Origin: Patescibacteria group bacterium
GTDB lineage: Bacteria > Patescibacteriota > Patescibacteriia > UBA2196
Direction of reading: 5' to 3'
Assembly: GCA_028748975.1 (NCBI GenBank)
Contig: JAQTPI010000004.1
Location: forward strand, 14,734-78,733
Length of the DNA: 64,000 bases
Numbering within the stretch: position 1 is the stretch's first letter; the number at the start of each line of letters is the position of its first letter. Of the stretch, positions 2 to 51,300 are shown one piece after another. A model generated the notes under the pieces. That model was given only the letters and a program-made list of their open reading frames with translations, had not been told where the DNA came from and did no database searches. The position numbers and the translations under genes are program-made.

Positions 2-649
2 GGAAATCAGCTCTTTGCCGGCACCCAGGCTGGCTTGTTCGTCTCCACTGATGACGGCGTTTCCTGGACAGCGGTTCCCGGCATCAGCTGGGACACTTCG
101 GTCAGAGCACTGGCGGTTAGTGGCAAGAATATTTTCCTCGGAACATGGGGAAAAGGATTGTTCCTCTCCACTGACAGTGGCACAACCTGGAGCAAGAATG
201 CCACAACTGGTTTGCCAACTGATGAATATGGAAGTGCTTTCATTATTTCTCTATTTGTCACGGACGACGGATATCTGTTGGCTGGCGCGTTCCATAACGG
301 TATCTGGCGCCGGGCACTCTCCGAGATGATTGAAACCTCGGTGGAGGAACCGGATCAGCCAGGTCAGCCAGAAGTTTCTTCGCCCACTGCTTTCCAGCTG
401 GCGCAGAACTTTCCCAACCCGTTCAATCCGACCACGACTATTGTCTACTCCATTCCCAAATCCAGCAGTGTCAGACTTTCTGTGTTTGACGCCTCTGGTC
501 GGGAAGTAGCAGTGCTCGTGAATGCTCGACAGAATGCCGGGGAATACCGCGCCACCTTCAATGGCGCCAATCTGCCGGCTGGCGTGTACTTCTACCGCCT
601 GCAGGCCGATAATTTCATTCAAACAAAAAAGATGTCTTACCTTAAATGA
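2..649 (+). CDS. 3' fragment of a secreted BNR/Asp-box repeat protein with a Por/T9SS-type C-terminal sorting domain. The gene is 5'-truncated by the window.
   Basis: The open frame enters from the window start (the track begins it at a TTG at 35). Repeated S-x-D-x-G-x-(T/S)-W motifs (STDDGVSW, STDSGTTW) are present. The C-terminal about 80 aa (FPNPFNPTTTIVYSIP...VYFYRL) matches the T9SS/Por C-terminal domain pattern. GC is about 55%, well above the window average. Confidence 0.6.
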   Translation, partial: GNQLFAGTQAGLFVSTDDGVSWTAVPGISWDTSVRALAVSGKNIFLGTWGKGLFLSTDSGTTWSKNATTGLPTDEYGSAFIISLFVTDDGYLLAGAFHNGIWRRALSEMIETSVEEPDQPGQPEVSSPTAFQLAQNFPNPFNPTTTIVYSIPKSSSVRLSVFDASGREVAVLVNARQNAGEYRATFNGANLPAGVYFYRLQADNFIQTKKMSYLK

Positions 650-665
650 GACATCTTCACTAATT

Positions 666-704
666 CATCAAACCCCGTTCCAATTGGAGCGGGTTTTTCT
701 TTTA
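666..704. terminator. Imperfect GC hairpin (cccgttcc aatt ggagcggg) with T-rich tracts on both sides; candidate bidirectional terminator between convergent genes.
   Basis: An inverted repeat with one mismatch is followed by ttttcttttatttc on the plus strand. It lies between the stop at 649 (+) and the stop at 702 (-). Confidence 0.4.
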
Positions 705-1352
705 TTTCTTTACCATTTCCTCAATTACCTTTTTAATATTTTTTTCTTTTTGCCACAGTTCGCCGATTTTTTGACGCATCGCAGTTTGATATTCCATGTT
801 GGGCTTATCTTTGCCTTCCACCAAATCAGAAAATTCGTGATTTAGGATTTCATTAAGTGATTCTTTTAAGTCGTAAAATTCTTTGGGATTCAAACCAATT
901 TCGTCTTTCAGCCATTTTTCAAAACAAAAATGAATGAAGAAATGAAAAATTTCATGAGCGCAGATTAATTTTGGCGCCAGAGTCAAAGCACTGACGAAAA
1001 AGTAATATTGGTTTGGATTATAGCCGCAGCGATCATTGACGGTTAAATAGGCCGTGATTTCTTCCACTGGCAATTTTACGCCAAAGATTTTTTCAATTTT
1101 TTGAAAAAATTCGTCATTGATCGAGGCCCATTCTTTTTGCAGAGTTTCAATTCTGTCCGCCATGTTGATTTTTCTTTCGGCGGTGAAATCAAGAATAAAC
1201 TTTTTGATTTTTTCTTTATCTAAATTCGGACCATAAATTTTTTCATACTCCGCCTGTCGCCGGGAAAGGTGCTCACGCGCGCCCACCGCGGTTTTGGCAA
1301 TGATGAAATTTTCAATATCTTTGTCTAAATTGTAGGTGAAATTTAGTTTCAT
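702..1352 (-). CDS. Hypothetical protein with an HExxH (AHEIFHFF) zinc-metallopeptidase-like motif.
   Basis: 216-aa ORF with an ATG start. Its HExxH motif sits in a context similar to that of the divergent neighbour (ITAYLTVN / ITVFVTH preceding HExxH), suggesting paralogy. Confidence 0.55.
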   Translation of the reverse strand: MKLNFTYNLDKDIENFIIAKTAVGAREHLSRRQAEYEKIYGPNLDKEKIKKFILDFTAERKINMADRIETLQKEWASINDEFFQKIEKIFGVKLPVEEITAYLTVNDRCGYNPNQYYFFVSALTLAPKLICAHEIFHFFIHFCFEKWLKDEIGLNPKEFYDLKESLNEILNHEFSDLVEGKDKPNMEYQTAMRQKIGELWQKEKNIKKVIEEMVKK

Positions 1353-1417
1353 AAATTTATTATACCATGGTTTGTGTTTTTTGCCTTTTTTGGTTTTTGG
1401 TGATAAGATAAGATTAT

Positions 1418-2146
1418 ATGAAACTGAAATTTTTGATAGACAAAAAATACCTTTTGGCGCACGCTTTATGGCGGAATGCGACGCCTTTTCCTGAATGGGA
1501 TGATTTTAAAAATTATCTTTGGCAGGAATCGATTTTGGGGTATCAATTTTTAGCCGGTTCACCAGAAGCATTATTACAAATTAATAAAACCAGCGAATTA
1601 ATCAAAGAAGGCGATAAATTATACAAGAAAGCATTGAAAAGAAAAGAATTTAAAAAATTATTAGCGGAGACGGAAAAATATCGGCAGTGGCTGGAAAAGG
1701 AATGGAATAAAAATGAAAAGAAAATTTTGGGCTGGGTGGAAGAACTTGGTGGATTAAAAATACCAAATAAAACTATTACGGTTTTTGTCACCCACCCGAA
1801 ATTTCGTAATGGCACAACTCTTATAGAAAAATATGTTATTTTATGGGGACACCCCGATGATTGGAAAAATTATTCTTTGGTTTATTTAACCCATGAATTA
1901 TTGCACCTTTTGACTAAAAAATGTAAAAAATTATTTATCATGCATGCCTTAATCGAGCTTCTCGCTGATAATGAAATTAGAATTAGATTAAATGGTGGAG
2001 GTGCGTATTTTAAAGAAGGCAAACATTCCGTCGGCCACCCATACTTAGCAAAATTAGAAAAGAAAATTTTGCCAAAATGGAAAGAGTTTATTAAAAATAG
2101 GAAAGGAAAAGATTTATTTGATTTTGAGAAAAAAATAAAGGGTTGA
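1418..2146 (+). CDS. Hypothetical protein with an HExxH (THELLHLL) motif; paralogue-like of 702..1352.
   Basis: 242-aa ORF transcribed divergently from a shared AT-rich 65-bp intergenic region. It is followed by a strong hairpin terminator. Confidence 0.55.
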   Translation: MKLKFLIDKKYLLAHALWRNATPFPEWDDFKNYLWQESILGYQFLAGSPEALLQINKTSELIKEGDKLYKKALKRKEFKKLLAETEKYRQWLEKEWNKNEKKILGWVEELGGLKIPNKTITVFVTHPKFRNGTTLIEKYVILWGHPDDWKNYSLVYLTHELLHLLTKKCKKLFIMHALIELLADNEIRIRLNGGGAYFKEGKHSVGHPYLAKLEKKILPKWKEFIKNRKGKDLFDFEKKIKG

Positions 2147-2177
2147 TTAGTATACTAATCAACCCTTTTGGTTCCCG
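2147..2177. terminator. Bidirectional rho-independent terminator.
   Basis: Perfect inverted repeat ggttgattag-tata-ctaatcaacc, flanked by cttttgg on plus and tttattttttt on minus. It closes gene 1418..2146 (+) and the peptide operon on the minus strand. Confidence 0.65.
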
Positions 2178-2190
2178 CACATAGCTTGCC

Positions 2191-2319
2191 TTAAGGAATG
2201 GAAGGCTGACATTCGGCGGTCGGCTGGCAATTTCCGAATTCCGGATTGCAGGGACCCGTGTCGGCCTCGTTTCCTGTTTGGCGGGCGGTAACCTCCAAGA
2301 TTTCGAAGGCATGTTCCAT
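2191..2319 (-). CDS. RiPP precursor peptide A2 (42 aa): MEHAFEILEVTARQTGNEADTGPCNPEFGNCQPTAECQPSIP.
   Basis: Absent from the ORF track (shorter than 60 aa). It has an ATG with the SD-like sequence aaggagtgggcc upstream. Its N-terminal FEILEVTA leader is shared with the neighbouring peptide, and the C-terminus is Cys/Pro/Asn-rich. It sits directly downstream of the rSAM/SPASM gene. Confidence 0.6.
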   Translation of the reverse strand: MEHAFEILEVTARQTGNEADTGPCNPEFGNCQPTAECQPSIP

Positions 2320-2348
2320 GGCCCACTCCTTGGTTTGGTTGTTATTGA

Positions 2349-2489
2349 TTAACCGGATCGCGGATTGCAATCCGGATTACACGAACCGCCCGGGAGACAG
2401 GTCGGGTTGCAATCGTTGTCCGTTGGGAAACAACGATTCTCGCCTTTCCTGAAGTCGGTGCCGGCTGTGACTTCCAGAATTTCGAACAT
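2349..2489 (-). CDS. RiPP precursor peptide A1 (46 aa): MFEILEVTAGTDFRKGENRCFPTDNDCNPTCLPGGSCNPDCNPRSG.
   Basis: Absent from the ORF track. A strong SD (ggaaggaggtgaaaagg) precedes the ATG, which begins 21 nt after the rSAM stop. The core has five Cys with CNP/DC motifs. Confidence 0.65.
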   Translation of the reverse strand: MFEILEVTAGTDFRKGENRCFPTDNDCNPTCLPGGSCNPDCNPRSG

Positions 2490-2509
2490 CCTTTTCACCT
2501 CCTTCCACC

Positions 2510-3769
2510 CTAGTTCCATTTGCCAGTATAAGGATTATACAAACAATCAATTGGTTTGGCAAATAAATCGCCAGTTGGAGAAGAGTTTTTGGCTTTAGGT
2601 CGGCAATCAAAACAACAATATCTATATTCGCAATCCTTACAAGTTTTCACTTGGTCTTTTGTAATGTTACGAATTTTTAATGCTTTTTCATTGCCGATTA
2701 TTTCTGACACTGAACCGTCAAAAACATTTCCTAAAACTAAATTCCTTTCCATAATACAGGGTATTATGTCTCCGGTTGGTGTTACGCAGATGTTTTTTGA
2801 AAAGCAATTGTGTCCACACTGAGCTCTTTGAAATTTTGGTAAGGTACAATGGCTAAAAGATGGTTTACTGATTTGATATTTCTTTAAGATTTCTTTGGGT
2901 ATTAACTGATTATTTTTTCCATTTCCACATGGCCTTACGGGATCTATCTTCACGTTTTGAATGCCTAAGTTTTGAACAAATCGTCGAGCATCATAAACAT
3001 TGTCTTGATTAATGTTCATCGCTACAATACCAACTCGTGTTTTGATTCCAACATCAACCATCTTTTTTAAATTGCTGATTGTTTTTTCAAAACTACCTTT
3101 TACGCGAGTCACTTTGTCGTGTATTTCCGCTTGATCTCCATAGATCGACACAGCGACGTTTATTTGATTGGCCCCGAAAAAAGCAATATTTGAATCGTTT
3201 ATCAGTGTGGCATTGGTGAAAACTTCAATAAATTCAAAACCTATTTTTTTACTTATCTCGATGAGTTTAATTAATCTTTTGGATATAATCATTGGCTCAC
3301 CACCGATAAATTGCAGTTTTTTACAACCAATAGCGTAGGATTGTTGCATCACCCTAACCCAATCCTTGTCGGTCATTTTATTTTTTGGATGGTTTTGTTT
3401 TTTCTTTTCGACCCGATAGCAGTGCAGACACTTTAGATTGCAAGCTCCGGTTATTTCTAACCAAACAAATTCCAAAGGAGCAGGTTTTTCAAAAACTATT
3501 TTATTTACCTTTTCCCTATTTGTTAAAATATGACCAAGTTTAAGATCGGTTAAATTTTTAATACAGGCGGCTGCTTTTTCTGCTAAAACACCGTCTTGGT
3601 AAGATTTAAGTAGTGTTTGAATTTCTAATCCGTCTTCCAGTTTTTTTATCAATTTCACAACGTATTCGTCAACTGAATAAACTTTTCCGTTTTCTAGATT
3701 ATGAACCACACCTCTTTTTGCTCCCTCAACAAGGAAGCAGTATTTTTCTAGAGCAAAAAAACCCTTCAT
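2510..3769 (-). CDS. Radical SAM enzyme with a C-terminal SPASM domain and an N-terminal about 100-aa extension (possible RiPP recognition element); candidate RiPP maturase.
   Basis: CNLKCLHC (CxxxCxxC) and the GGEP motif mark the rSAM core. The C-terminal Cys cluster CGHNCF...CVTPTGDIIPC...CKDCEYRYCCFDCRP is typical of SPASM auxiliary Fe-S domains. A strong SD (aaggaggaaagcaaa) precedes the ATG. Confidence 0.85.
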   Translation of the reverse strand: MKGFFALEKYCFLVEGAKRGVVHNLENGKVYSVDEYVVKLIKKLEDGLEIQTLLKSYQDGVLAEKAAACIKNLTDLKLGHILTNREKVNKIVFEKPAPLEFVWLEITGACNLKCLHCYRVEKKKQNHPKNKMTDKDWVRVMQQSYAIGCKKLQFIGGEPMIISKRLIKLIEISKKIGFEFIEVFTNATLINDSNIAFFGANQINVAVSIYGDQAEIHDKVTRVKGSFEKTISNLKKMVDVGIKTRVGIVAMNINQDNVYDARRFVQNLGIQNVKIDPVRPCGNGKNNQLIPKEILKKYQISKPSFSHCTLPKFQRAQCGHNCFSKNICVTPTGDIIPCIMERNLVLGNVFDGSVSEIIGNEKALKIRNITKDQVKTCKDCEYRYCCFDCRPKAKNSSPTGDLFAKPIDCLYNPYTGKWN

Positions 3770-4004
3770 TTTGCTTTCCTCCTTCCTTGTTTGGTTTTGA
3801 ATGAGCTTTTTGTTTATTTTTGGCTAAAATTAGCCATTTTAGTAAAATCAGTAGTACTTCATATTGTATAAGTGTGTTTTTTTAGATTTTCGTTACACTT
3901 GACTTTTTTCTTTACTCCAATTATACATCTATTTTATGATTTCTGTCAAGTTGGATTAAATGATATAATATAGATATAATACTTTATCCACAAAAAATTA
4001 AAGA

Positions 4005-4088: not shown

Positions 4089-4101
4089 GGACGAACAAAA
4101 T

Positions 4102-7100
4102 ATGAAAATTAAAAGATATAAAATTTTATTGGTCGGAGTGATTTTAATTTTAATCGCCGGTGGTTTTTTTGTCATCCAAAAATCCGGCCAGGAAGCCGAA
4201 GCGCAGGGGCTCTTGCCGCTTAGCCCGCCGACCAATGTGCAAAAAAATTATGCCACCACCGCCCTGATTGATTGGAGTTGGAGCGCGCCAGTATCCGGCG
4301 GCCTGCCGATTGATTATTACAAAGTCTACACTGGCAGCGGTGGCTTCATCTCCGATGTCACCGGCACCAACTATACGCAACCCGGGCTTAATCCCAGCAC
4401 GCAATATTCCATTAAGGTTATGAGCTGTAAATATGGCAGTGACCCGACCTGCACCGGCCCATATTATGCCAGCACTTTTTCCAGCACGGCTTATGGCTAT
4501 ACCAAAGCCAACACTCCCAGTAATCTGACTGTTTCTCCATCCGCGGATTGCTTGGCTGATAATTACGGAGCCAGCGGGGAGTGCCAATTGACTTGGAGCT
4601 GGAGCGCGAATGACAACTCGGCGGGCACAAATTATTATTATTCAACAGATGAAGGTGCGGGCGCGTGGACAACCAGTTTGAGCTATACAGAAACAATCAG
4701 TTTTGACAGTTGCCGTACGCATACCGCGGGCAGCACGGCGCATACTTTTTACGTGAAAGCCAAGAATGGAGAAGGTGAAGAAACTGACACGACAAGTTTA
4801 AGCAAGACGGAATATAATGTGTGTGATTGGTTGGAAGATTTTGTTTTAAGTCATATTCCTCCTTATGCCAACCAATTTCGCGCTACCTGGACTCCCTCTC
4901 CAAATATTGAGATTCGAGCAGCATTAAATGGCGGTAATTTTCAGACAATAACAAACAATGGAACATTTATGGCTGGACCAGATGGGGTTTGGGCAAATGC
5001 AAGAAATTGGGTGGATTTTCAATGGCATTATGTTGGTGAAGCGTGGCCTCCTAATATAATAATAACCAAAGAAATAAAAGCCCTTCTTCCTCAAGTCGCT
5101 TCAGTTTCTTGTTCCGGCGCTACCACAAATTCTTTGACAGTGACAGCAGAGGGTGGGGGACTGGGTTTTCCAAACCTTTTTACTCTTCTAAGTGGAGTAA
5201 AAATGTCAAAGGCCGTGGTCTATGGAACAGATGATGATGTTGGGACGTATAGTAGTGGCTACCCAACATCAATACCTTTGACTTGGACGGTTTCCAATCT
5301 TTCTCCCAACACTTCCTATTCTTTTAAATTTATAAGCTATAACCAAGAAGGCACGGCAAACTGGGAAACAGAAGCTTTAACTGCCGGGAGCTGTCGGACG
5401 GCCGCGGCGGTTTATCCTCAATGCGGAACAACAACATATAGCCCGGCGCCGCCAACTTGGACCCACAGCAGCGTGCTGGTTTCCATCCCCTGCACGGAAG
5501 AGGGCGGGCCTGGCTGCTCCAAATCAACCTACACCTTGAGCCGTTCAAGCAATGGCAGCGGCACCATTGTTATTAGTGATATTGTCGGCAACACGACCGA
5601 GTGCCCCTACAACGTCACCAACATTGATAAAATTGCGCCAACAGTGAATTCTTTTACAGTTGACGATCATGCTTCTGATTTTACCAGCTCTGACACTGGG
5701 CCGGTGATTGACTGGACCGTGGCTGATTCTGGCGGGTCAGGACTGAAACAGGTGGAGGTTTGGCGCAAAACCGCTGGCGGAGATTGGATACTGATTTATA
5801 CCACCACTGATGTTTCCGGCAATGGCCCGACCAGCGGTTCTTTTACTGACTCGGTTGATTGTCTGCCTTCCCACCAACCCTACACCTATGGCATTCATGT
5901 TTTGGATAATGCCAATAATATCGGTTATGAAAATAATCCCATCGCGGTGACCCTTTCAAATTGCGGCGGGACGCCAACTTGCGGCAGTAATGACAATGGC
6001 GAAGGCGATTTGTTGCAGGCCACCTGCGAGAACGCGCCGATTTTTGGCAAATGGAATTATGCTTCTGACGACGCGACAGGCATGTGCTGGAAAAAAGACC
6101 GCGACGACCCCTATCTTTGCTGCGGTGACGACTCGGGTGAAAATTGGGATTATTTCCGCGAATTTTTTGGCAGTTTTGGCAGTTATTCCACCGATGAGAA
6201 TGACAATGCTTGCTGTAATAATGCTTCTGACTGCGTCTTTAATCACACCTGCTATGATGGTGATGCGAATGGCGCCAGTTTTGAATCCGCTTCCTGCATG
6301 AGCGGCCAAAGATATTGCGGCGGACCCAATGTTTATACTTGGGAAACCGACGCTGATTACAATTTTGCCGTCTGCCAATGTTTGCAAGGTTCTGCCGACC
6401 GCTGGAATGAAAGCGGCTGGTTTGGCGGCAACCAAATTAATTGGAGCATTGGTGGTTATTCGCAAGACCGTTGCTGCGGCGATGATGCTGGAGAAGTTTT
6501 TGCCAACGGTGTTTGTACCACTGGCGCGGCTCTGCCGGATTTGGTGGTGGAAAGCGTGACGCCGCCGACAGGCCTGATTTGCATGGGCAGAAGCGCCACA
6601 TTTTCCGCCGTGATTAAAAACACCGGCAATGCTTCAACCGGCGCGGGGTTTGCCAACCAGATTACTTTGGTGGACACGGGCTCGTGCTTGGCCAATTCTA
6701 CCGCGCTCACGGCGAGCGAAAGCAAAAATATTTCCTGCGCCATTACGCCGAGCGCGGCTGGAATTAAAACCGTGATGTCGCAGGCAGATTATGACGATGC
6801 CATTTCCGAATCCAATGAAGACAATAATGGCCGAGACACCACCGCCACAATTTTTGCCACGCCAAACACGCCCACGGGTTTGACAGCCACCGGCATTGGC
6901 GCCACGGACATCACTTGGGACTGGGACAACATGAGCGGCGCCACTTCTTATATAATTTTATTAAACGGCATTCCGGTTGACACGGTAACCAGCAGCCAAT
7001 ACATTGCCCAGGATCTTTGGGGCGCGGCTGATTATACCATCACAGTTCAAAGTTACAACGGTTGTGGTGTCAGCAGCGGAGCGCAACACACAGTCACCAG

Positions 7101-10100
7101 GGGCGTGAGTTTAGCCGGGTCGCCGGGCGCGCAGACAATTAACCAAGGCGCGAGCGCCATTTACACCATTACAGTTTCCTCGGTTAATGGTTTGGCTGAT
7201 ACAGTTAATCTTACTCTCTCCGGCTGTCCCAGCGGGGCAACTTGCCAGCTTTCGGGCAGTTCCGTGATTTTAAATAATAATTCACAGGGCGTGACTTTGA
7301 CAGTCAGCAATGCCAGCGTTGGCGGACCCTACACTCTAACCATTTCCGGACATGGCGTGGCTTCAAATAAAAACGGCGCCACCACCGTGGATTTGACCGT
7401 GGTTGAGGCCAACTATCCATCGGTTTCCATCTGGGCCATTCCGCAGACAATCGCGCGCGGGCAATCTTCCGTTGTTTCCTGGACTTCCAATAATGCCAGC
7501 AGTGTTGACATAACCAACATTGGCACTGGTCTTGCCACGAGTGGCAACCAGTCGGTGGCGCCGACAGTGACCACGACCTACACGGCCACGGCTTATGGCA
7601 GCGGCGGACGCACGGCCACGGCGAGCGTGACCGTGACCGTGACTAATCCGACAGAAATTTATTGCGGAGACGGAGTTTGTAATGGCGCGGAAACTTGCTC
7701 CACCTGCCCCTCTGACTGCGGAATATGCGTGGGCGGCGGCGGCGACTCTCCGAGCACCCCCACGAATTTAAGCGGTCCTTCCGGCTGTACCACCGACACC
7801 ACGCCAAGCTTCAGTTTTACAGTTTCCGACCCGGATTTTGGCGACAAGGTTGGCTATCAAATTCAAATTGATGACAGCGCCACTTTTGCATCGCCCTTGA
7901 TTGATTTCACCTGGAGCAGCTTGGGTGATACTCCGCAAAACGGCACTTTTGACACGCCAAGTTCCTGCCCCACGCCACTCGGCGGCTATGCTGTCTGCAA
8001 TACGCCTTTGCCGGCCGGCAACTATTATTGGCGCGTGCGCGCTTTGGACAACCACAGTAATTTTTCCTCCTATGAATCCGGCAGCGCTTTTTCCGTGGCG
8101 GCGGTTTGCGGCGGGGGTGGCGGCGTGAACGCGGATTTCACTGTTTGCAAATACAGCGCCGACACTTTTCAATTTTTAAACGCCACCGAGGGCGTCACTG
8201 TGCCAACCTATGGCTGGAATTTTGATGATGGCACGGGTTGCGCCGAAACCGGCTGTACGGCGAGCATTGGCGGCACCACCATTGGCACACGCATTGATCC
8301 GGCGCATAAATTTAATAATAATTATTGGGCCAAACGAATCAAGATTACTTTCAGCAATGGCGGACAGGCGGAAAATTTGGTGGATTTCCCGGTTTTAATC
8401 AAACTTAATGGCAGCCGCATTGATTACACTCAAACCCAAAACAGCGGGCAGGATTTGCGCTTTTTTGACGCGGACGGCGGCACGGAATTGGCTTATGAAA
8501 TTGAAAAATGGAATGAAAGCGGAGATTCTTTTGTCTGGGTGAAAGTGCCACAAATTGACGCCAGTTCTAATTCCGATTACATTTGGTTGTATTATGGCAA
8601 TCCGGCGGCAACGGCTGGCGCCAATGCCGAAAGTGTTTGGAACAGCGGTTATGCCGCGGTTTATCACCTGAAAGAAACTTCCGGTAAACATTATGATTCC
8701 ACGGCGAATAATAATGATTCCGAAAATAATCCAAACGTACAAACACAAGGCAGTGCCGCAGGCAAAATTGACGGCGCGGATGATTTCTTAAAAGAAGTAA
8801 ACGGAGAGGGCGAAGAAACCTCTAGTGATTCCATTACAATTAATGATAGTAATAGTTTGGATTTGACCAATGCTTTGACGATTGAGGCTTGGGTGCGCTC
8901 AGACTATTTGGAAAATCGTGACCGTATTGTGTCTAAGGGTTCTATTTCCCAGACCTATGTTTTGCGGCAAGAAATTTCTGACACCGGTGGTTCTTTCCCA
9001 GGTTCTTTGCATTTTTTTGGCGCTGGTGTTGCTCAAGCCAGAAGTATTTTAACCGCTGGCACTCTTCAATATATAGCGGCCACTTGGGATGGAATTAATG
9101 GCGACCATAAACCCAAACTTTTTAATAATGGTTCGGAAGTCAGTTCTTATTTTGCGCAAACAGCCAAAACAGCACCTATAAATGCAAACACCGAAGTTTT
9201 GACCATTGGCAATATTGATCAGGGTTGGGACGGTATTATTGATGAAATGCGGCTTTCCAATGTGGCGCGCTCCGCGGCCTGGCTCAAAGCGCAGTATCTT
9301 TCCATGAGCGACACGTTTAACACTTTCAGCAGCCAAGAAAGTTTGGGATACGTGATTGACGGAGGCAAAGTGGCGGGGGCGACGGATGAATTAAGAATTA
9401 TGAATCAAGAATTAAGGACGACTGATAACGGGCAACAAACAACCGACAACTTACAACAAATAACCAACAAAAATATTTTTGAAAAGATTTGGGCGGGAAT
9501 TAAAACGGCGGGGAAATGGGCGGTGAATTTATTCAAAGCCAAAGATTCAGAGGCCTTAAGCGCCACCTATTCGGTCATGCTTTCGGTCAATGACCCGGCT
9601 GGCAATGACACGGAAACAAAAGTGGTGAATTTGGCGAGCGTGCCGCTGTGTGAATTCAACCTGACTAATGTTTCTTCCTTGAGTTGCGGACGGGTGGACG
9701 GCGAATGGGAAAAATTTGGCGGTTTCGCTGACGCCGGCGCCTACACGGTGAAAAGATGCGCGGGCAGCGGCTGCAGTGATTTTGACACGGTCAGCGTAAC
9801 CAAGTCCTGTTCCACCTCTTGTTATTTTGAAGATATTGGCGTGGAGCCAAGCACCGCGTATTCATATTACATTTCTTTGCCAACGCAAGGAGTGAAAAAT
9901 TCCACTGACAATCCGGCTTGCGACGGTGCCTCCGCGATTTGTCCGCTCAGCGTCACTACTGCGGTGTGCGGCGTGGAAGGTTCGGACATAGTGACCACAC
10001 GCGCCTGCGGAAAAATTACTTTGATTTGGGACGAAGTGGAGGGTTCAACTATTTATGAAGTTCAAAGGGCGATTGGCGCCAGTGATAATACTTTTACCAC

Positions 10101-10308
10101 GGTGGCGACCTTGGGCGCGGGTACAACGCTTTATGAAGATGAGGACGTGGTTACAGTCAGCACCACCAAACCTGCTAACCAGTTCCGTTATTGGTATCGC
10201 GTGCGTTCGCAGGCAAGCAATGGCCAATGGTCTGATTGGTCAGCGGCCGCGCCGGTTGGCGGCGAGTATTCCTATTGTTACCGCGGGCCGAGCTGGGAGG
10301 AGAGGTAA
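4102..10308 (+). CDS. Giant (2068 aa) cell-surface protein: N-terminal signal anchor, several fibronectin-III-like modules, a CARDB-like module, Cys-rich segments, a DUF2341-like region followed by a LamG/concanavalin-like region, and further Ig-like repeats.
   Basis: One uninterrupted ORF. It begins with the hydrophobic helix MKIKRYKILLVGVILILIAGGFFVI. FN3-like W/Y/T-spaced segments are present, and LPDLVVESVTPP...NTGNASTG resembles CARDB. LVDFPVLIKLNGSRIDY...WVKVP resembles DUF2341, and EAWVRSD...DEMRLSNVARSAAW resembles LamG. GC is about 52%. Confidence 0.8.
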   Translation: MKIKRYKILLVGVILILIAGGFFVIQKSGQEAEAQGLLPLSPPTNVQKNYATTALIDWSWSAPVSGGLPIDYYKVYTGSGGFISDVTGTNYTQPGLNPSTQYSIKVMSCKYGSDPTCTGPYYASTFSSTAYGYTKANTPSNLTVSPSADCLADNYGASGECQLTWSWSANDNSAGTNYYYSTDEGAGAWTTSLSYTETISFDSCRTHTAGSTAHTFYVKAKNGEGEETDTTSLSKTEYNVCDWLEDFVLSHIPPYANQFRATWTPSPNIEIRAALNGGNFQTITNNGTFMAGPDGVWANARNWVDFQWHYVGEAWPPNIIITKEIKALLPQVASVSCSGATTNSLTVTAEGGGLGFPNLFTLLSGVKMSKAVVYGTDDDVGTYSSGYPTSIPLTWTVSNLSPNTSYSFKFISYNQEGTANWETEALTAGSCRTAAAVYPQCGTTTYSPAPPTWTHSSVLVSIPCTEEGGPGCSKSTYTLSRSSNGSGTIVISDIVGNTTECPYNVTNIDKIAPTVNSFTVDDHASDFTSSDTGPVIDWTVADSGGSGLKQVEVWRKTAGGDWILIYTTTDVSGNGPTSGSFTDSVDCLPSHQPYTYGIHVLDNANNIGYENNPIAVTLSNCGGTPTCGSNDNGEGDLLQATCENAPIFGKWNYASDDATGMCWKKDRDDPYLCCGDDSGENWDYFREFFGSFGSYSTDENDNACCNNASDCVFNHTCYDGDANGASFESASCMSGQRYCGGPNVYTWETDADYNFAVCQCLQGSADRWNESGWFGGNQINWSIGGYSQDRCCGDDAGEVFANGVCTTGAALPDLVVESVTPPTGLICMGRSATFSAVIKNTGNASTGAGFANQITLVDTGSCLANSTALTASESKNISCAITPSAAGIKTVMSQADYDDAISESNEDNNGRDTTATIFATPNTPTGLTATGIGATDITWDWDNMSGATSYIILLNGIPVDTVTSSQYIAQDLWGAADYTITVQSYNGCGVSSGAQHTVTRGVSLAGSPGAQTINQGASAIYTITVSSVNGLADTVNLTLSGCPSGATCQLSGSSVILNNNSQGVTLTVSNASVGGPYTLTISGHGVASNKNGATTVDLTVVEANYPSVSIWAIPQTIARGQSSVVSWTSNNASSVDITNIGTGLATSGNQSVAPTVTTTYTATAYGSGGRTATASVTVTVTNPTEIYCGDGVCNGAETCSTCPSDCGICVGGGGDSPSTPTNLSGPSGCTTDTTPSFSFTVSDPDFGDKVGYQIQIDDSATFASPLIDFTWSSLGDTPQNGTFDTPSSCPTPLGGYAVCNTPLPAGNYYWRVRALDNHSNFSSYESGSAFSVAAVCGGGGGVNADFTVCKYSADTFQFLNATEGVTVPTYGWNFDDGTGCAETGCTASIGGTTIGTRIDPAHKFNNNYWAKRIKITFSNGGQAENLVDFPVLIKLNGSRIDYTQTQNSGQDLRFFDADGGTELAYEIEKWNESGDSFVWVKVPQIDASSNSDYIWLYYGNPAATAGANAESVWNSGYAAVYHLKETSGKHYDSTANNNDSENNPNVQTQGSAAGKIDGADDFLKEVNGEGEETSSDSITINDSNSLDLTNALTIEAWVRSDYLENRDRIVSKGSISQTYVLRQEISDTGGSFPGSLHFFGAGVAQARSILTAGTLQYIAATWDGINGDHKPKLFNNGSEVSSYFAQTAKTAPINANTEVLTIGNIDQGWDGIIDEMRLSNVARSAAWLKAQYLSMSDTFNTFSSQESLGYVIDGGKVAGATDELRIMNQELRTTDNGQQTTDNLQQITNKNIFEKIWAGIKTAGKWAVNLFKAKDSEALSATYSVMLSVNDPAGNDTETKVVNLASVPLCEFNLTNVSSLSCGRVDGEWEKFGGFADAGAYTVKRCAGSGCSDFDTVSVTKSCSTSCYFEDIGVEPSTAYSYYISLPTQGVKNSTDNPACDGASAICPLSVTTAVCGVEGSDIVTTRACGKITLIWDEVEGSTIYEVQRAIGASDNTFTTVATLGAGTTLYEDEDVVTVSTTKPANQFRYWYRVRSQASNGQWSDWSAAAPVGGEYSYCYRGPSWEER

Positions 10309-16621: not shown

Positions 16622-18731
<2,110 letters not shown>

Positions 18732-18760: not shown

Positions 18761-18808
18761 TATTAATATCCACATCAGTCACGATCGTGACTGATGTGGA
18801 TATTAATA
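18761..18808. promoter_or_regulatory. 48-bp perfect palindrome centred on TCACGATCGTGA, overlapping or just upstream of the PaaX-like gene start; candidate operator or cruciform site.
   Basis: Base-by-base check shows 24/24 complementary arms (tattaatatccacatcagtcacga|tcgtgactgatgtggatattaata). Confidence 0.6.
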
Positions 18809-18816
18809 AAAACCAT

Positions 18817-19347
18817 ATGCCAAGTAAATTATCAAAATTTTCTAAGATTTGTTTAGAGTCTTTTATTGATCTAAGTAATTTTGTAATCAGTAGTCCAATC
18901 AGTTATATTAATATTCGCAAGTTTCTTTATGGCGGCGCACCCGATGATTTTTATAAGACGTTTTATAATTTAGAAAAAGGTCATTATTTAACTACCAAAA
19001 AAAGAAATGGTCAGAAATTTTATTATTTAACTAAAAAAGGTAAAAAAATTACAACAGAGTTGCTAGTAAAATATAAGATCAAAAAACAAAAATGGGATGG
19101 CCAGTGGCGTATCTTGATTTTTGATATTCCCGAAAATAAGCGTCGTTTCCGAGATAATATGCGCCAAAGTTTATTGAATCTTGGTTTTATCAAACTCCAA
19201 AAGAGCGTCTGGATTACTCCCTATGATATTATTGATGATTTATATGAAATTATCCCTGGTTTTCGGGAAGGCGATTGGTTTGAATATGTTGAAGCCAAGC
19301 ATATTAGCAGTAAAAAGAAATTGAAAGAATATTTTAGATTGAAGTGA
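18817..19347 (+). CDS. PaaX-like protein: N-terminal winged-helix domain plus a C-terminal Cas2/VapD-like fold region.
   Basis: KTFYNLEKGHYLTTKKRNGQKFYYLTKKGKK resembles a wHTH. WRILIFDIPENKRRFRDNMRQSLLNLGFIKLQKSVWI resembles the Cas2/PaaX_C core. The track start at 18787 lies inside the palindrome, and ATG 18817 (MPSKLSK) is more plausible. Confidence 0.5.
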   Translation: MPSKLSKFSKICLESFIDLSNFVISSPISYINIRKFLYGGAPDDFYKTFYNLEKGHYLTTKKRNGQKFYYLTKKGKKITTELLVKYKIKKQKWDGQWRILIFDIPENKRRFRDNMRQSLLNLGFIKLQKSVWITPYDIIDDLYEIIPGFREGDWFEYVEAKHISSKKKLKEYFRLK

Positions 19348-45305: not shown

Positions 45306-48300
45306 ATGTTCCGTTGTCAAAATTACCATGCTCAAAAGACAGAAAACCACGCTCAAGAAAAGAGTCGTGGTTTTATTTCTTTAACCGAGGCGGCGGAGCT
45401 ATGCACTTACTCACAGGAATATCTATCACTTTTGGCCAGACGGGGGGAACTTCGGGCGCAGAAGTTTGGCAACAACTGGTTTACTAAAACTAAATGGCTG
45501 AAAAAATACGTGGCAGAACACGCCGAAGGCACCATCCTTAATGGCAAGGGAAAATTTTTGGCGAAAGAAAAGATGGCCATGGATTTTAGGAGTTTTAGAG
45601 AAGAAGTTGAGGATTTGATTATGACAGCGAAGAAAAAAACAGTAGCGGTTGGCAGAGGCGGATTGGTGGCCGCGGTGGCATTAGCAATGGTGACCGGAGC
45701 GATTTTGGTCAAACCAAATTATGTGAGAGATTTTGCGCTGACGGAAATTAAATTGGCGCGCATTGGAGTTGGTGAAATTAAAAATATTTTGTGGAGCGAT
45801 GGCGTGATTCGGTTTGGAGTACAGATGAAAGAGGTGGTGCTGGGCATGAAGGAAGATTTTTTAGTAGCTGATAATTTATCGTCTGACCCTCTCCAAACTT
45901 CCTCCCTAGCAAGGGGAAGAGCTTACGGACTAGTGGCGGGAGCAAAGACCGATGAAATTTGGAAAAATTTTGTTGGTAAACTTAATCGAATAAAGATTTT
46001 GAATGTCAACATGGCGCAAAATTTTGAAAATTCCGATCAGGAAATTTATTTGGTACATAATTATTGGCAAAAAATTGGAGGACTGGCAGATAATTTCATT
46101 CCGATTTTTTCTTTTGTAAAAAGAGAGAGCTCACAAATTATCGATGGCGCGGCAAAAATTATTGGCAAAGCCGGAGAGAGAATTGATCGCTCGACCGCTA
46201 ATTTTGGCGGAAAAATTGGCGAGTGGTTTTCATCTTTCCAAAAAACAGAATGGGATCCACAATTGTTAAGTCAGTTAGCAAAGAAAACCCAAGAGACACA
46301 GATTGTTTATCAAACGAATAACATAATCAACAACACAACTTTGGTCAGTGGAAATAAAACAACTGCCGGGCCGGGCGTAATTGACACACAGGGAACAACC
46401 GGCATTAACGGCGCAACTGGCAAAACTGGCAGCCAAGGGCCACGCGGTGAAAAAGGTGAAACCGGGCCACAAGGATTACAGGGAATACAAGGACCAGCCG
46501 GTATCTGTGGTGGAACATGTTCGGGTAGTGGCGGTTCGGTTACCAATATTTACAATGTGGGCGTGCAAGGCGCCACGGCCCATGATGGCGCGGGTAGTTC
46601 GCTGGCCACTAAATATTTGGGCGCAGGCGAACTCTCGGTTTCCGGCAACACCAGCTTAGTTGGCGTCTTGACAGTGGGGGGCGGCGCTTCTTTTAGCAGT
46701 GGCGTGTCCATTGCCGGCATCTTGAATGGCGGCAACGCGACTTTTGGCGGTGTTTCCATGGCCACATTGAATGCCACAACCACCAATGCTGACAGTCTTT
46801 ATATTTTTAATAATGCCACGACCACGGGCGCGCAATATATCGGCGGAGATTTAACTGTGGCTGGTACTGCGGTTTTCACTGGTGGCAGTTCTTTCAATTC
46901 CATCACGACGACTGATACGGCCTACATTGGTGGCAGAAGTTTTTTGATGGGCAACGTCGGCATCGGCACCACAAATGCTACGGCCACCCTGCTTGTTATT
47001 AGCGACCAATATGAAGGCGCAAAATTCGTAGTGGCCTCATCCACGGCTTTGGCTACGCCGAGTTTGTATGTTGATAAAGGAGGCAACGTAGGCATTGGCA
47101 AAACTAATCCCGAATTTAAATTGGATGTTGCGGGAATAATAAATGCCACCTCTTTGTATGTTGATGGCAGTCCCTATGTTGGTAGCCAATGGACAACAGC
47201 TGTTAATGATATTTATTATAATACTGGTAATGTAGGCATTGGCATTACTAACCCAGCTGCTTTGTTTGAAATCGCCACAACCACAACTGACTGGGCCGCG
47301 GGAACTCGTCCTTTAATGCGCGTGGCCACGAAGACCACGGAGGCGTTGTATGTGGGAGCGAGCGGGAATGTGGGAATTGGGACGACCGTGCCGACATCCA
47401 CTTTGCAGGTGGCTGGTAATTTCAATATCACCACCACTTCGGCTTTGACGACTAATCAAAGTGTTTTCTTTGTGAACAATGCGACGAAGAACGTGGGAAT
47501 TGGCACCACCGCGCCAGGAGCTAAATTAGAAGTCAATGGCTCAATCCTTCCAAGTTCAAGTTTGGCCAATGATTTGGGAAGCGGAACTCGCTATTATAAC
47601 AATGGCTATATTTATACACTTGATCAGGGTGGCGGCGTTATTCAAAATACTACTTATATAAAATCTCAAGGCAGTTTGGGTATATTTCCTTTTAGCGGCG
47701 GCACCACCGCAACTTTAAGAATTGGCTCCTTGCCAGGCCAAGGCACAACTTATTCTTATAAAGATATTTATTTTGACACAGCGGATGTTAATAGAATGTA
47801 TATTGCCAATGCGGGCAACGTCGGCATCGGCACGACTAATCCACAGGGCGCATTGTCCGTGATGAATGGTAATGTGGGCATTGGCACCACCAATCCCGGC
47901 GCTTTATTTGAAATCGCTACGACCACGACTGACTGGGCCGCGGGAACTCGTCCTTTAATGCGCGTGGCCACGAAGACAACAGAAGCTTTTTATATCGCGG
48001 CAAGCGGAAACGTCGGCATTGGGACGACGAATCCGCAATACAAATTTGATATTGCTGGCTATGCTTCTTCTACCCAAGATATTTACGCGGCGAACCTTGG
48101 TTATAATGAAGGCATGTTGGAAGACCCAACCATTATTGACGCAACCGGTGCGGCAATTAATATTTCAGCAGCTTATGTTTTAATCCGTTCCAGTAGTGAT
48201 TGGACTGGTTATAAACTAGAAAGACATTTGGTGCCGGCAAATACCGCTTTAGCTTTAACCGATAATGATCTTAACTACGTTTATATTAATTATAATAGCG

Positions 48301-51300
48301 GTTCGCCAATTTACGCCGCTACCACCAATCGTGATGTAATTAATAACTCCAATGCCGTGCCAGTATCAAGAATTATGATGACTTCCGGCAATATTGAATA
48401 CAAAATTAATTATGGCGCGATTGGTAAATCAGTGGCCATCCGCAATTTTGACCGCGTGATGCGCACCCGCGGCATAACCGGCATTGAAAGAGAAAGCGGC
48501 TTAGCCATTTCTGAAAGTGCTTCTCGTGTTTTGTCTGTTACTTCGGGTTACGTCTGGTTTGGCATGGATAGAATTACAATTGATGCCATGACTGTCGGCA
48601 CTGGCGGAGCCACGGCAGAAGTTTGGTATCATTCGGGCGGCAATTGGGTTGCTTCTTCCACGCCGACTTATGAACATTTAAGTTATGATAATGGTACAAA
48701 TTTAACCACGCTTACCGCCAACCGTTACGCCGTGAACTGGGTTTTTCGCAATGTGGCCAATGGAGCCGAAATTGATATTATTTTGGGTTCTGGTGATTAT
48801 ACTTTAGCCCAAGCTGAAGCCAGCATGCTACCATCTTTGCCAGAAGAGGTTACTAATTTTTATGCTTTGGTTGCTAGAATTATTATTAAGAAAAATAACA
48901 CAGTGGCTTACGCCATTGAAAATGAAGCAGATTTTTCTTTCCGGCAGGCCGCGGTAACCATTCATAATGATTTGTCTTCAATTCAGGGTGGCACCACAGG
49001 CGAGTATTATCACTTAACCGCGTCCGAACAAATAGAACTGAACGGCTGGCTGGATGATGCCATTTTGACTTCCACTGGTGGTTTAAGTGTTAATTCCGCC
49101 ACTACCACGGGCTCATTTTATTTTCCCGGCGGCGTAGTTATGGAAAACGGTAATGTGGGAATTGGAACAACAGTGCCGACTTCCACCTTGCAGGTGGCTG
49201 GTAATTTTAATATCACCACCACTTCGGCTTTGACTACAAATGAAAGTGTTTTCTTTGTGAACAATGCAACAAAGAATGTGGGAATTGGGACGACAACCCC
49301 CCTAACTTCATTAAGTGTTCAGGGAGCGCCGGGAAAGCCAGTAATGAACATTGCTTCTTCCACCGGAGCTTCATTACTATATGTGGGTGAAGATGGAAAG
49401 GTCAATATTGGTGGTGAATTTACAGGGGCATACAAATCATCATTAAATGTAACAGGTAATGCGGTTGTGACCGGTATCATTTATGGCCCGAGTTATGGGG
49501 CAACAATTAATATGTCCACCGGCAAGTTAACAAACACCAGTTCGGCAATGGAATTTGATTGGACTAACGGCTTATGGTCTACTTATCGCACTAACATTAC
49601 TTTGTATCCTTACGGGGCATATGATGAAGGCGGGGGAAAAATTATACTTAAAGGCAATGTTGGCATCGGGACGACAAATCCACAAGGTGCCTTGTCGGTG
49701 ATGAATGGTAATGTGGGCATTGGCATGACGAATCCTATAGCAGTATTTGAAATTGCTACCACCTCCAATGATTGGGTTGGTGGGAGTAATGTTCCTTTAA
49801 TGCGGGTGTCTACCAAAACGACGGAAGTTTTCTATATAAATGCTACGGGCAATGTCGGCATCGGGACAACTGCACCTTTGGCAAAACTTAACGCTTCCTC
49901 CACCACGGCGCAGTTAAGATTAACCAATGGCGAAACTGTCAGCACTAATTTTACTGATTTTAATGTTCTCTCAGCCGGTGATTTGATTATTGACCCACAA
50001 GGCACGGCTACGACTACTTTTGTGCGGAGTAATCTGAAAGTGGAGGGAAATGCGACGACAACAGGAAGTTTGGTGGTAGGCAATCCGACTGGCGGCGGCA
50101 TGGGTGCCGGTACAATTAATGCCGAACACACCCTTTATGTGAATGGCGCAGATTACGCGGAATATTTTTTAACTAATGATGTTGACTTGCAACCAGGCGA
50201 AGCAGTTTGTATTGATGTCACTAATGACAAAGCGGTTAAAAGATGCTACCGTGGCGCTGACCCGGACATCATTGGTATCGTTTCTACTAAGCCGGCGCTT
50301 GTTGGTAATAATCAAGAATTTGACGGGGAAACCGTGATTGTCGGTTTAATCGGCCAGGTGCCAGCTTTTGCTTCCGTTGAAAACGGAATTATTCGGCCGG
50401 GCGATTCTTTAACTTCGGCTTCCTCCACCCCGGGCTATTTAATGAAAGCGAGCGCGGGCGATTCCACCGTGGGCGTGGCTTTGACCGGACTTCAAAATGG
50501 CACTGGTGGTATTAATGTTTTAATTTCCAGAAGGAATAAATCTTTGACCGTGGAACAAGTGGAAGAACAGGTGACGAAGCGCGTGGCCGACATGAAAATT
50601 GAGGATGAAGTGAACATGATGGTCTCGGACGCCGTGAGGACACTGGGTGTTGATGAACAAATTAAACTTTTGGATTTGAAAGTGGTGGAGTTGGAAGAAA
50701 AAGAGAAGCTAGCGGTTAAATCATTTGACGAGGTTACAGCCAATAATTTAAAAATTATTACTTTAGCTGAAATAGAAGAATTAAAAGCGAAAAATATTAT
50801 GACGGAAAAGATAACCGCTGATATGGCTCAAGCCACAACTGGCAATTTCCAAGAATTGGTGCTCGGGACAAGTGAAGAGAGAATAGAGAATAGCGAAGAG
50901 CAGGCTGCAACGACGGCGACGACAACCAATGAAGGGGAAAGAGAGAAGAGCGAAGAGTTATTGGTAAACAACAAACAAGTGCGGATTACGGTGATTGACG
51001 ATCCAGATGATAGTGAAGTCAGAATTAAAATCTCCGGCGGGGCGGAATTTGGCGGCACGGTTAAGGTGGTGAATTTGGAAGTGGGTGGTAAAATTACAAT
51101 TAAGGGCGGGGCGGAATTTTTGGGTGAAGCTACTTTCAGAAATAATTTGAATCTGGAAAGTGCTTTAACCCGAACCTATCAAGAAAAGAAAGATGAAATG
51201 TTAAAAATTGGCGACGCGGTTTATATTTCCGGCGACAATGAAGTGGCCAGAGCTTTTGCCGACATTGTTGACGGAAGCGGCATGTTTAAACCAGCCATAG

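Follow-up and report, generated by a model that had tools for sequence, protein, structure and literature searches.

A radical-SAM/SPASM enzyme and its C-x-P-rich partner peptides: a candidate peptide-modification module of Patescibacteria and other phyla

What do two very short, cysteine-rich reading frames encode when they follow the gene of a radical S-adenosylmethionine (rSAM) enzyme, and what would that enzyme do to their products? The question is raised by contig JAQTPI010000004.1 of a Patescibacteria group bacterium, from which a stretch of 64,000 nucleotides, referred to here as the window, was analysed. A preliminary description of this DNA had proposed an operon for peptides that are made by the ribosome and modified after translation (RiPPs), composed of an rSAM/SPASM maturase gene and two precursor peptide genes. 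The genes in question and their Shine–Dalgarno sequences are the following.

2510-3769, minus strand: 419-aa open reading frame (ORF) of the rSAM enzyme, a putative peptide maturase with a predicted RRE (RiPP recognition element)-rSAM-SPASM architecture
2503-2498, minus strand: Shine–Dalgarno sequence of peptide A, AGGAGG, with the start codon 8 nt downstream
2349-2489, minus strand: precursor peptide A, 46 aa, ATG at 2489 and stop codon at 2351-2349
2331-2326, minus strand: Shine–Dalgarno sequence of peptide B, AAGGAG, with the start codon 6 nt downstream
2191-2319, minus strand: precursor peptide B, 42 aa, ATG at 2319 and stop codon at 2193-2191

The enzyme gene, both small ORFs and both Shine–Dalgarno sites lie where they had been placed, and the peptide sequences had been quoted exactly. 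The gaps between the enzyme gene and gene A and between genes A and B, given as 21 and 30 nt, measure 20 and 29 nt, which is a trivial difference. The enzyme, peptide A and peptide B genes are one co-transcribed unit. Peptide A starts with the leader MFEILEVTA and continues into a core with five C-x-P triplets (CFP, CNP, CLP, CNP, CNP), while peptide B has the leader MEHAFEILEVTA and a core with three (CNP, CQP, CQP). All five Cys residues of peptide A belong to such triplets, an outcome equalled by none of 100,000 shuffles, and the same is true of all three Cys residues of peptide B (shuffle p = 0.004). The core motif originally read as common to both peptides, CNPxC or CxxxD, is therefore replaced by C-x-P, which accounts for eight of the eight Cys residues. 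The common leader block, in turn, holds: it reads FEILEVTA in the window and E-[LI]-x-x-V-[TS] across the relatives described below.

The closest relative of this operon, found on a JGI contig (L001), encodes an enzyme 83% identical to that of the window, followed by two small genes in the same order, which JGI called as 47 and 42 aa, and the convergent 242-aa gene is present as well. Peptide A shares no more than 62% identity in this relative, with an in-frame 3-nt indel and a replaced linker between leader and core, and nevertheless all five Cys residues and their +2 Pro are kept. Peptide B shows 86% identity and retains all three C-x-P triplets. Since both small ORFs are preserved in this relative, the indel is in frame and C-x-P survives at 62% identity, these ORFs are more than chance. 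Their composition is distinctive as well. The peptide genes have 54-55% GC inside a block of about 33% GC, and their GC content at third codon positions (GC3) is 0.58-0.60 versus 0.29 in the enzyme gene; six of their ten Pro codons are CCG, a codon used for none of the 15 Pro residues of the enzyme.

The pairing of enzyme and C-x-P peptide recurs far beyond these two contigs. A scan with an enzyme profile, using one genome per species, yielded 273 confirmed relatives, and 80 loci were kept. Each was translated in six frames and scored for stop-to-stop segments shorter than 200 aa that held three or more C-x-P triplets and were located no more than 1.5 kb from the enzyme gene. Such an ORF was found in 61 of the 80 loci (enzyme homologues of 32-51% identity), downstream of the enzyme in 46 and upstream in 15, so that the conservation of the small ORFs, which had been named as a check on the original proposal, is borne out. 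The density of C-x-P ORFs reached 0.275 per kb near the enzyme versus 0.006 per kb in distant flanks, a 44-fold local enrichment. Among Patescibacteria, the pair occurs in Parcubacteria, Microgenomates, Saccharibacteria and WWE3; among Negativicutes, it occurs in Sporomusa, Pelosinus, Dendrosporobacter, Anaerospora, Propionispora and Lucifera. Further hosts belong to Bacteroidota, Fibrobacterota, Krumholzibacteriota, Latescibacterota and several archaea.

Across 39 curated peptides, 301 of 317 Cys residues (95%) lie in C-x-P, as compared with 79 +/- 7 (maximum 102) in 2000 shuffles of the cores that preserved composition. Different residues occur in the middle, with S, N, G, L, Q, P, A and R each contributing at most 15% and Gly 11%. 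At position +3, the Patescibacteria type shows an enrichment of D/E/N and Negativicutes one of R/N/S; in the Patescibacteria type, position +4 lacks conservation. The triplets are separated by 3-9 residues and occur in 3 to 28 copies, for instance as (CWPRQQ)x10 in Pelosinus or (CRPCPPSQ)n in uncultured Bacillota; they may abut (CDPCSP) or terminate the peptide (...CLP, ...CSP, ...CAP). Leaders outside Negativicutes have [ET]-[LI]-x-x-V-[TS] in common, of which FEILEVTA is the window version, and those of Negativicutes read PKW[DE]xPE[MI] followed by an acidic stretch. A variant precursor subfamily (L013, L016, L020, L072) carries the leader LEI[QE]LV[TS] and the core CGPDTCPW[VI][GD]C, where just the first of three Cys residues lies in C-x-P.

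None of the peptides has an NCBIfam or Pfam match, which agrees with the earlier suggestion of a new precursor family distinct from SCIFF. A peptide profile search of a collection of 5.8 billion proteins returned 11 related called proteins, all labelled 'hypothetical', and the window peptides are absent from that collection as called proteins, as expected from their description as unannotated. Most C-x-P peptide genes escape gene calling. Judged from sequence, these loci have the features by which a RiPP system is recognised, namely a short precursor, its leader conserved and its core variable, that is encoded beside the enzyme across taxa; on the same genomic evidence, the enzyme–peptide pairing and the leader/core organisation are conserved across phyla.

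Some loci of Negativicutes have surroundings of their own. In Sporomusa and Pelosinus (L030, L035), the enzyme gene and the gene of a C-x-P repeat protein of about 100 aa adjoin tig-clpP-clpX. The pair occurs in Negativicutes loci without an accompanying peptidase or transporter. In the Pelosinus locus L035, a gene with a CotF (spore-coat) domain lies directly downstream, and the pair may have a spore-related role in this clade.

The enzyme itself is readily recognised by its domains. Pfam Radical_SAM (PF04055) scores 65.8 bits against a gathering score of 29.5 (E 6.8e-18), and Pfam SPASM (PF13186) scores 35.5 bits against 21.5 (E 1.2e-8). The rSAM cluster motif CNLKCLHC (C110/C114/C117) is invariant in 34 of 34 aligned homologues. 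Its two flanking domains are positioned as follows.

3515-3769, minus strand: N-terminal domain, aa 1-85, RRE-like
2513-2872, minus strand: SPASM domain, aa 300-419, with seven invariant Cys

The Cys residues of the SPASM domain that are invariant in the 34 homologues follow the pattern C322-x10-G-x4-C338 ... C377-x2-C380-x5-C386-x2-C389 ... C409, in which the last spacing is CX2C as opposed to the canonical CX3C. No eighth SPASM Cys is invariant, C308 being present in 20 and C328 in 25 of the 34 homologues. CteB has an open site on auxiliary cluster I, and the absence of an invariant eighth Cys is compatible with such an open site in the window enzyme.

The N-terminal extension had been proposed to act as a recognition domain, and structure prediction favours this view. 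In the AlphaFold model of the enzyme (AF2, pLDDT 90.2), residues 4-75 are predicted to form four beta-strands and three helices, followed by a TIM-barrel-like core. Foldseek against the PDB ranked CteB and SuiB, two RiPP maturases that contain an RRE, first, then anSMEcpe, TigE and SkfB, at about 18% identity. The CteB match has an E value of 1e-17, and the full-length alignments to CteB and SuiB include the N-terminal domain. Sequence profiles gave a different order among PDB entries (SkfB with 101 bits, anSME, CteB), and the CteB profile alignment starts at enzyme residue 23, within the N-terminal domain. Matches to PqqD (PF05402) are weak and occur in five of the 34 homologues. As modelled, the enzyme N-terminus resembles a RiPP recognition element.

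No NCBIfam model reaches its cut-off for this enzyme, and the following scores were obtained.

StsB, 110 bits, cut-off 625, the best NCBIfam match
Grasp-with-spasm TIGR04193, 97 bits, cut-off 175, SPASM region only
PapB, 73.4 bits, cut-off 340
SkfB, 71.5 bits, cut-off 300
SCIFF maturase TIGR03974, 71.2 bits, cut-off 425
AlbA, 66.8 bits, cut-off 850

The GeoRSP_rSAM score falls in the same range as those of other families. The search of 5.8 billion proteins retrieved 443 relatives of the enzyme, all named just 'radical SAM protein', one of which is the identical protein from a Patescibacteria metagenome-assembled genome. As far as profile scores can tell, the enzyme is a distant relative of every characterised maturase. 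Clustering with the anaerobic sulfatase maturases, which had been singled out as the result that would speak against a RiPP enzyme, was not observed.

A further component may come from two neighbouring genes that encode proteins with HExxH motifs.

1418-2146, plus strand: 242-aa HExxH protein, convergent with the peptide genes, with H159 E160 H163 ... H176 ... E180
702-1352, minus strand: 216-aa HExxH protein, distantly paralogous to the 242-aa protein

Neither protein has an NCBIfam or Pfam match. The 242-aa protein has a thermolysin/M1-like (gluzincin-like) fold, with the HExxH motif and the downstream Glu ligand by which gluzincins are defined. Its family comprises about 45 unnamed proteins with no Pfam domain, in which H159, E160, H163, H176 and E180 are invariant. 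Among the first 83 loci, 18 have a homologue of 33-55% identity next to a C-x-P peptide gene, including L008, L009, L012 and L053, in which the enzyme lies on the other side. The arrangement of enzyme, peptide and convergent 242-aa gene is repeated on a WWE3 contig (L090) that was retrieved independently. Owing to its thermolysin/M1-like fold and its recurrence beside peptide genes in about 20 loci, the 242-aa protein is a candidate leader peptidase, and the earlier statement that no dedicated protease is adjacent needs to be revised accordingly. The absence of an adjacent exporter, in contrast, stands, as neither an exporter nor a C39 peptidase was found among the next seven ORFs of the window.

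The place of the 216-aa protein in the system is uncertain. It is related to the 242-aa protein with an hhalign E value of 4.7e-5, the HExxH motifs being aligned, and it was not found in the other rSAM loci. In related contigs (L084-L087) that are devoid of the rSAM and peptide genes, the divergent pair of HExxH genes persists at 82-88% identity. Another contig (L088) encodes, at 4250-5709, a more distant rSAM/SPASM enzyme of 28% identity, convergent with a homologue of the 242-aa family, and a different small Cys-rich ORF (...CQCCKPGPCSPKQH) lies upstream of that enzyme gene.

How could these parts work together? The reading that we favour, and to which we give about an even chance, is a compact RiPP-type module in which each C-x-P triplet receives a thioether within the unit and the 242-aa peptidase removes the leader. 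The N-terminal winged-helix/beta-sheet domain would bind the leader as an added beta-strand. The rSAM cluster would then cleave S-adenosylmethionine, and the resulting 5'-deoxyadenosyl radical would abstract a hydrogen inside each C-x-P unit, with the SPASM auxiliary clusters handling the substrate thiol and the electron. Each triplet would most likely be a self-contained modification unit, because invariance is confined to Cys and the +2 Pro, Gly is allowed in the middle, units may abut or stand at the terminus, and copy number varies from 3 to 28. The occurrence of Gly excludes side-chain chemistry at the middle position, and the variable spacing and copy number point to a local modification of each triplet rather than to a SCIFF-like nested pattern. 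The most likely product would be a thioether from the Cys sulfur to C-alpha or C-delta of the +2 Pro or to C-alpha of the middle residue, which would resemble sactionine and ranthionine formation as well as three-residue cyclophanes. Such an intra-unit thioether is favoured because the nearest relatives (SkfB, StsB) are thioether synthases and because there is no invariant eighth Cys. The convergent gluzincin-like protein would probably remove the leader at the end.

Several observations weigh against this reading. The C-x-P chemistry in the window is entirely inferred, and we know of no precedent for a Cys-to-Pro thioether. The enzyme resembles thioether synthases weakly (about 18% identity), to an extent comparable with its resemblance to anSME, TigE and haem-pathway enzymes. 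Auxiliary cluster I might be completed by C308 and C328, which are conserved in the Patescibacteria-type subfamily. The 242-aa protein is found at 82% identity also on contigs with no adjacent rSAM or peptide genes, and of four of its distant homologues on long contigs, two have no rSAM enzyme beside them. The missing exporter counts on the same side.

The same module could also carry out another reaction on the same triplet. The enzyme may oxidise the Cys, abstracting a hydrogen from C-beta and producing a thioaldehyde or formylglycine, maybe a heterocycle like the 5-thio-oxazole of SbtM, and the role of the +2 Pro would then be limited to shaping a turn in which Cys is presented to the active site. 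Cys and +2 Pro stand in exactly the register of the sulfatase CXPXR motif, anSMEcpe ranks among the best matches of the enzyme in both sequence and structure, the GeoRSP_rSAM score stays within the range of other families, and a change confined to Cys explains why Pro is the sole conserved surrounding. Chemistry of this type is also documented for Cys, as a passage of PMC13638132 cites the rSAM/SPASM enzyme SbtM as making a 5-thio-oxazole on this residue. The peptides, however, lack the sulfatase +4 Arg, TIGR03942 is outside the 25 best NCBIfam matches of the enzyme, and anSME lacks an RRE and ligates its clusters by eight Cys residues, as opposed to a predicted RRE and seven invariant Cys in the family described here. 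In the profile alignment, moreover, the residue after the second SPASM Cys is Ile339 here and Asp in anSME; it aligns with Asp277, the proposed base. Cys oxidation is graded as a serious rival of the intra-unit thioether, though on balance an unlikely one. A different topology follows if the system is a classical sactipeptide or ranthipeptide of the SCIFF-like kind, with Cys linked to distant acceptors in nested or hairpin rings over the core. This would suit the enzyme architecture and the nearest relatives (CteB, SkfB, StsB, PapB), which are thioether synthases of that type, and the Patescibacteria-type cores are rich in D/E/N/T, the acceptors in known ranthipeptides. What makes such a nested topology less likely is that acceptor residues are constant neither in number nor in position and that the copy number varies. 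The cores of Negativicutes, (CWPRQQ)n and (CRPCPPSQ)n, do not offer the usual acceptors in a fixed ratio, and 3-28 copies at a spacing of 3-9 residues fit independent repeats and not a fixed ring topology. With no SCIFF match for the peptides and a TIGR03974 score of 71 bits versus 425, this explanation seems rather improbable to us.

It may also be asked whether the peptides are enzyme substrates of the RiPP type at all. They could be Cys/Pro-rich metal-binding or structural peptides, perhaps spore-associated in Negativicutes, which the enzyme cross-links in place or of which it is a mere neighbour. The peptides contain many potential metal ligands, neither an exporter nor an immunity gene adjoins them in the window, and the pair in Negativicutes stands without protease or transporter, beside tig-clpP-clpX and, in L035, the CotF gene. 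On the other hand, adjacency and co-orientation extend across phyla with the 44-fold local enrichment, the conserved leader is distinct from the core, the enzyme carries a predicted domain of the leader-binding type, and a peptidase-like partner recurs in Patescibacteria. We consider this explanation quite improbable as a whole, and its 'mere neighbours' version very unlikely.

The boundaries of the operon are marked by two putative signals.

3949-3920, minus strand: promoter-like site, TTGACA-18-TATAAT, a 12/12 match to the sigma-70-like consensus
2168-2137, minus strand: putative intrinsic terminator, a 14-bp hairpin with a T-run, forming the 3' boundary of the enzyme-A-B operon

The start codon of the enzyme gene is about 150 nt downstream of the promoter-like site, which was identified by its consensus match alone. 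The terminator hairpin overlaps the 3' end of the convergent 242-aa gene. It had been called bidirectional; on the minus strand a T-run follows the hairpin, and on the plus strand only four T residues do, which makes bidirectionality plausible but weak.

The block at 700-4000, with the two HExxH genes and the rSAM gene, has about 33% GC versus about 50% GC in its flanks (1-650 and 4100-10300). The GC contrasts of the block and of the peptide genes might stem from horizontal acquisition of an island or from separate constraints acting on the mRNAs of the peptides. Upstream of the block, a 204-aa ORF of 52% GC (35-649, plus strand) encodes BNR/sortilin-like repeats and a C-terminal sorting domain for type IX secretion, Por_Secre_tail (E 3.9e-10); it is unexpected on a contig assigned to Patescibacteria and could indicate transfer or an assembly or binning issue. 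Two giant surface proteins are predicted on the plus strand: one of 2068 aa at 4102-10308, with fn3, CARDB, DUF2341 and LamG domains, and one of 2210 aa at 45306-51938, which contains numerous 'NVGIGTT' repeats and a collagen-like G-x-y stretch. Other C-x-P-rich frames at 46313-46549 and 54875-54997 (minus strand; CNPCNPCNPCGP...) were rejected as chance and are not regarded as precursors, the former because it is antisense to the collagen-like stretch of the 2210-aa ORF. A 186-aa ORF at 18787-19347 (plus strand) with a PaaX central Cas2-like domain (E 1e-22) lies beside an NAD-dependent DNA ligase gene (16683-18731).

As to novelty, RiPPs made by rSAM/SPASM enzymes are a known kind, and the precursor family is new; there is a fair chance that the chemistry is new as well. 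C-x-P precursors are undescribed in the searchable full-text literature, with subscription-only papers outside its scope, where the sulfatase CXPXR was the one C-x-P motif found. That C-x-P is both the recognition and the reaction unit of an rSAM RiPP chemistry not yet described, giving a Cys-to-Pro ring or multiple Cys-derived aldehydes or heterocycles, is a real possibility to which we attach somewhat less than even confidence. If it is true, a new RiPP class would be widespread in Candidate Phyla Radiation (CPR) bacteria, spore-forming Negativicutes and some archaea, and Patescibacteria would have their own gluzincin-like family of leader peptidases. The retention of the cluster in the strongly reduced genomes of Parcubacteria, Microgenomates, Saccharibacteria and WWE3 suggests that its product matters to their lifestyle. 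Since standard annotation misses the precursor genes, such clusters are undercounted. rSAM/SPASM maturases have been a repeated source of new peptide chemistry, and a cross-link formed in each triplet would make the enzyme a possible stapling tool for short motifs. The C-x-P rSAM family is a solid genome-mining lead, and it is directly testable by co-expression owing to its clear minimal motif, hundreds of natural variants and clusters of two or three genes.

Known systems resemble this module in different respects. The SPASM region of the enzyme (residues 299-419) is best matched by the grasp-with-spasm family TIGR04193 (E 1.5e-27), with the first part of the protein unaligned; unlike in grasp-with-spasm systems, no ATP-grasp gene is present in the window. 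anSME/AtsB (TIGR03942; 4k36-4k39) are likewise rSAM/SPASM enzymes with a high structural match, and their C/S-x-P/A-x-R substrate shares the register of Cys and +2 Pro. They differ in having no RRE and in acting on a single site of a folded sulfatase. Membership in this family was rejected in view of the N-terminal domain, the seven invariant Cys and the Ile at the anSME Asp position, and one homologue of the enzyme (P0117) scores 51 against a TIGR03942 cut-off of 349.

The SCIFF/CteB ranthipeptide systems (TIGR03973/TIGR03974; 5wgg/5why) share the arrangement of a three-domain rSAM-SPASM enzyme with an N-terminal RRE, here a predicted one, beside a short Cys-rich, leader-bearing precursor, while identity is about 18% and variable C-x-P repeats contrast with six Cys in a fixed 45-residue pattern. 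SCIFF membership was rejected, as the enzyme obtains 71.2 bits against 425 and the peptides match no family at E <= 1. SkfB, StsB (streptosactin) and AlbA are known to form thioethers on leader peptides, and SkfB and StsB are the best sequence matches, although the enzyme scores far below their cut-offs (625 for StsB, 300 for SkfB and 850 for AlbA) and the precursors are unrelated. SkfB, in addition, has a twitch-like auxiliary domain and not a full seven-Cys SPASM. Membership in the StsB, SkfB, AlbA and PapB families was rejected because the enzyme stays below each NCBIfam cut-off.

The closest parallel in logic is offered by rSAM RiPPs built from repeated units, such as PapB/freyrasin (CX3D), the triceptides, TigE/TvgB (TVGG) and the CXXX-repeat family TIGR04117. 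PapB, TigE and the Cxxx family give weak matches only. The CXXX-repeat target was rejected as an assignment, with no match for the window peptides and 13.2 bits versus 50 for the peptide of a Bacteroidota locus (L075). C-x-P differs from these systems in its motif and irregular spacing, and it would share with them the principle of a repeated motif whose copies are modified independently.

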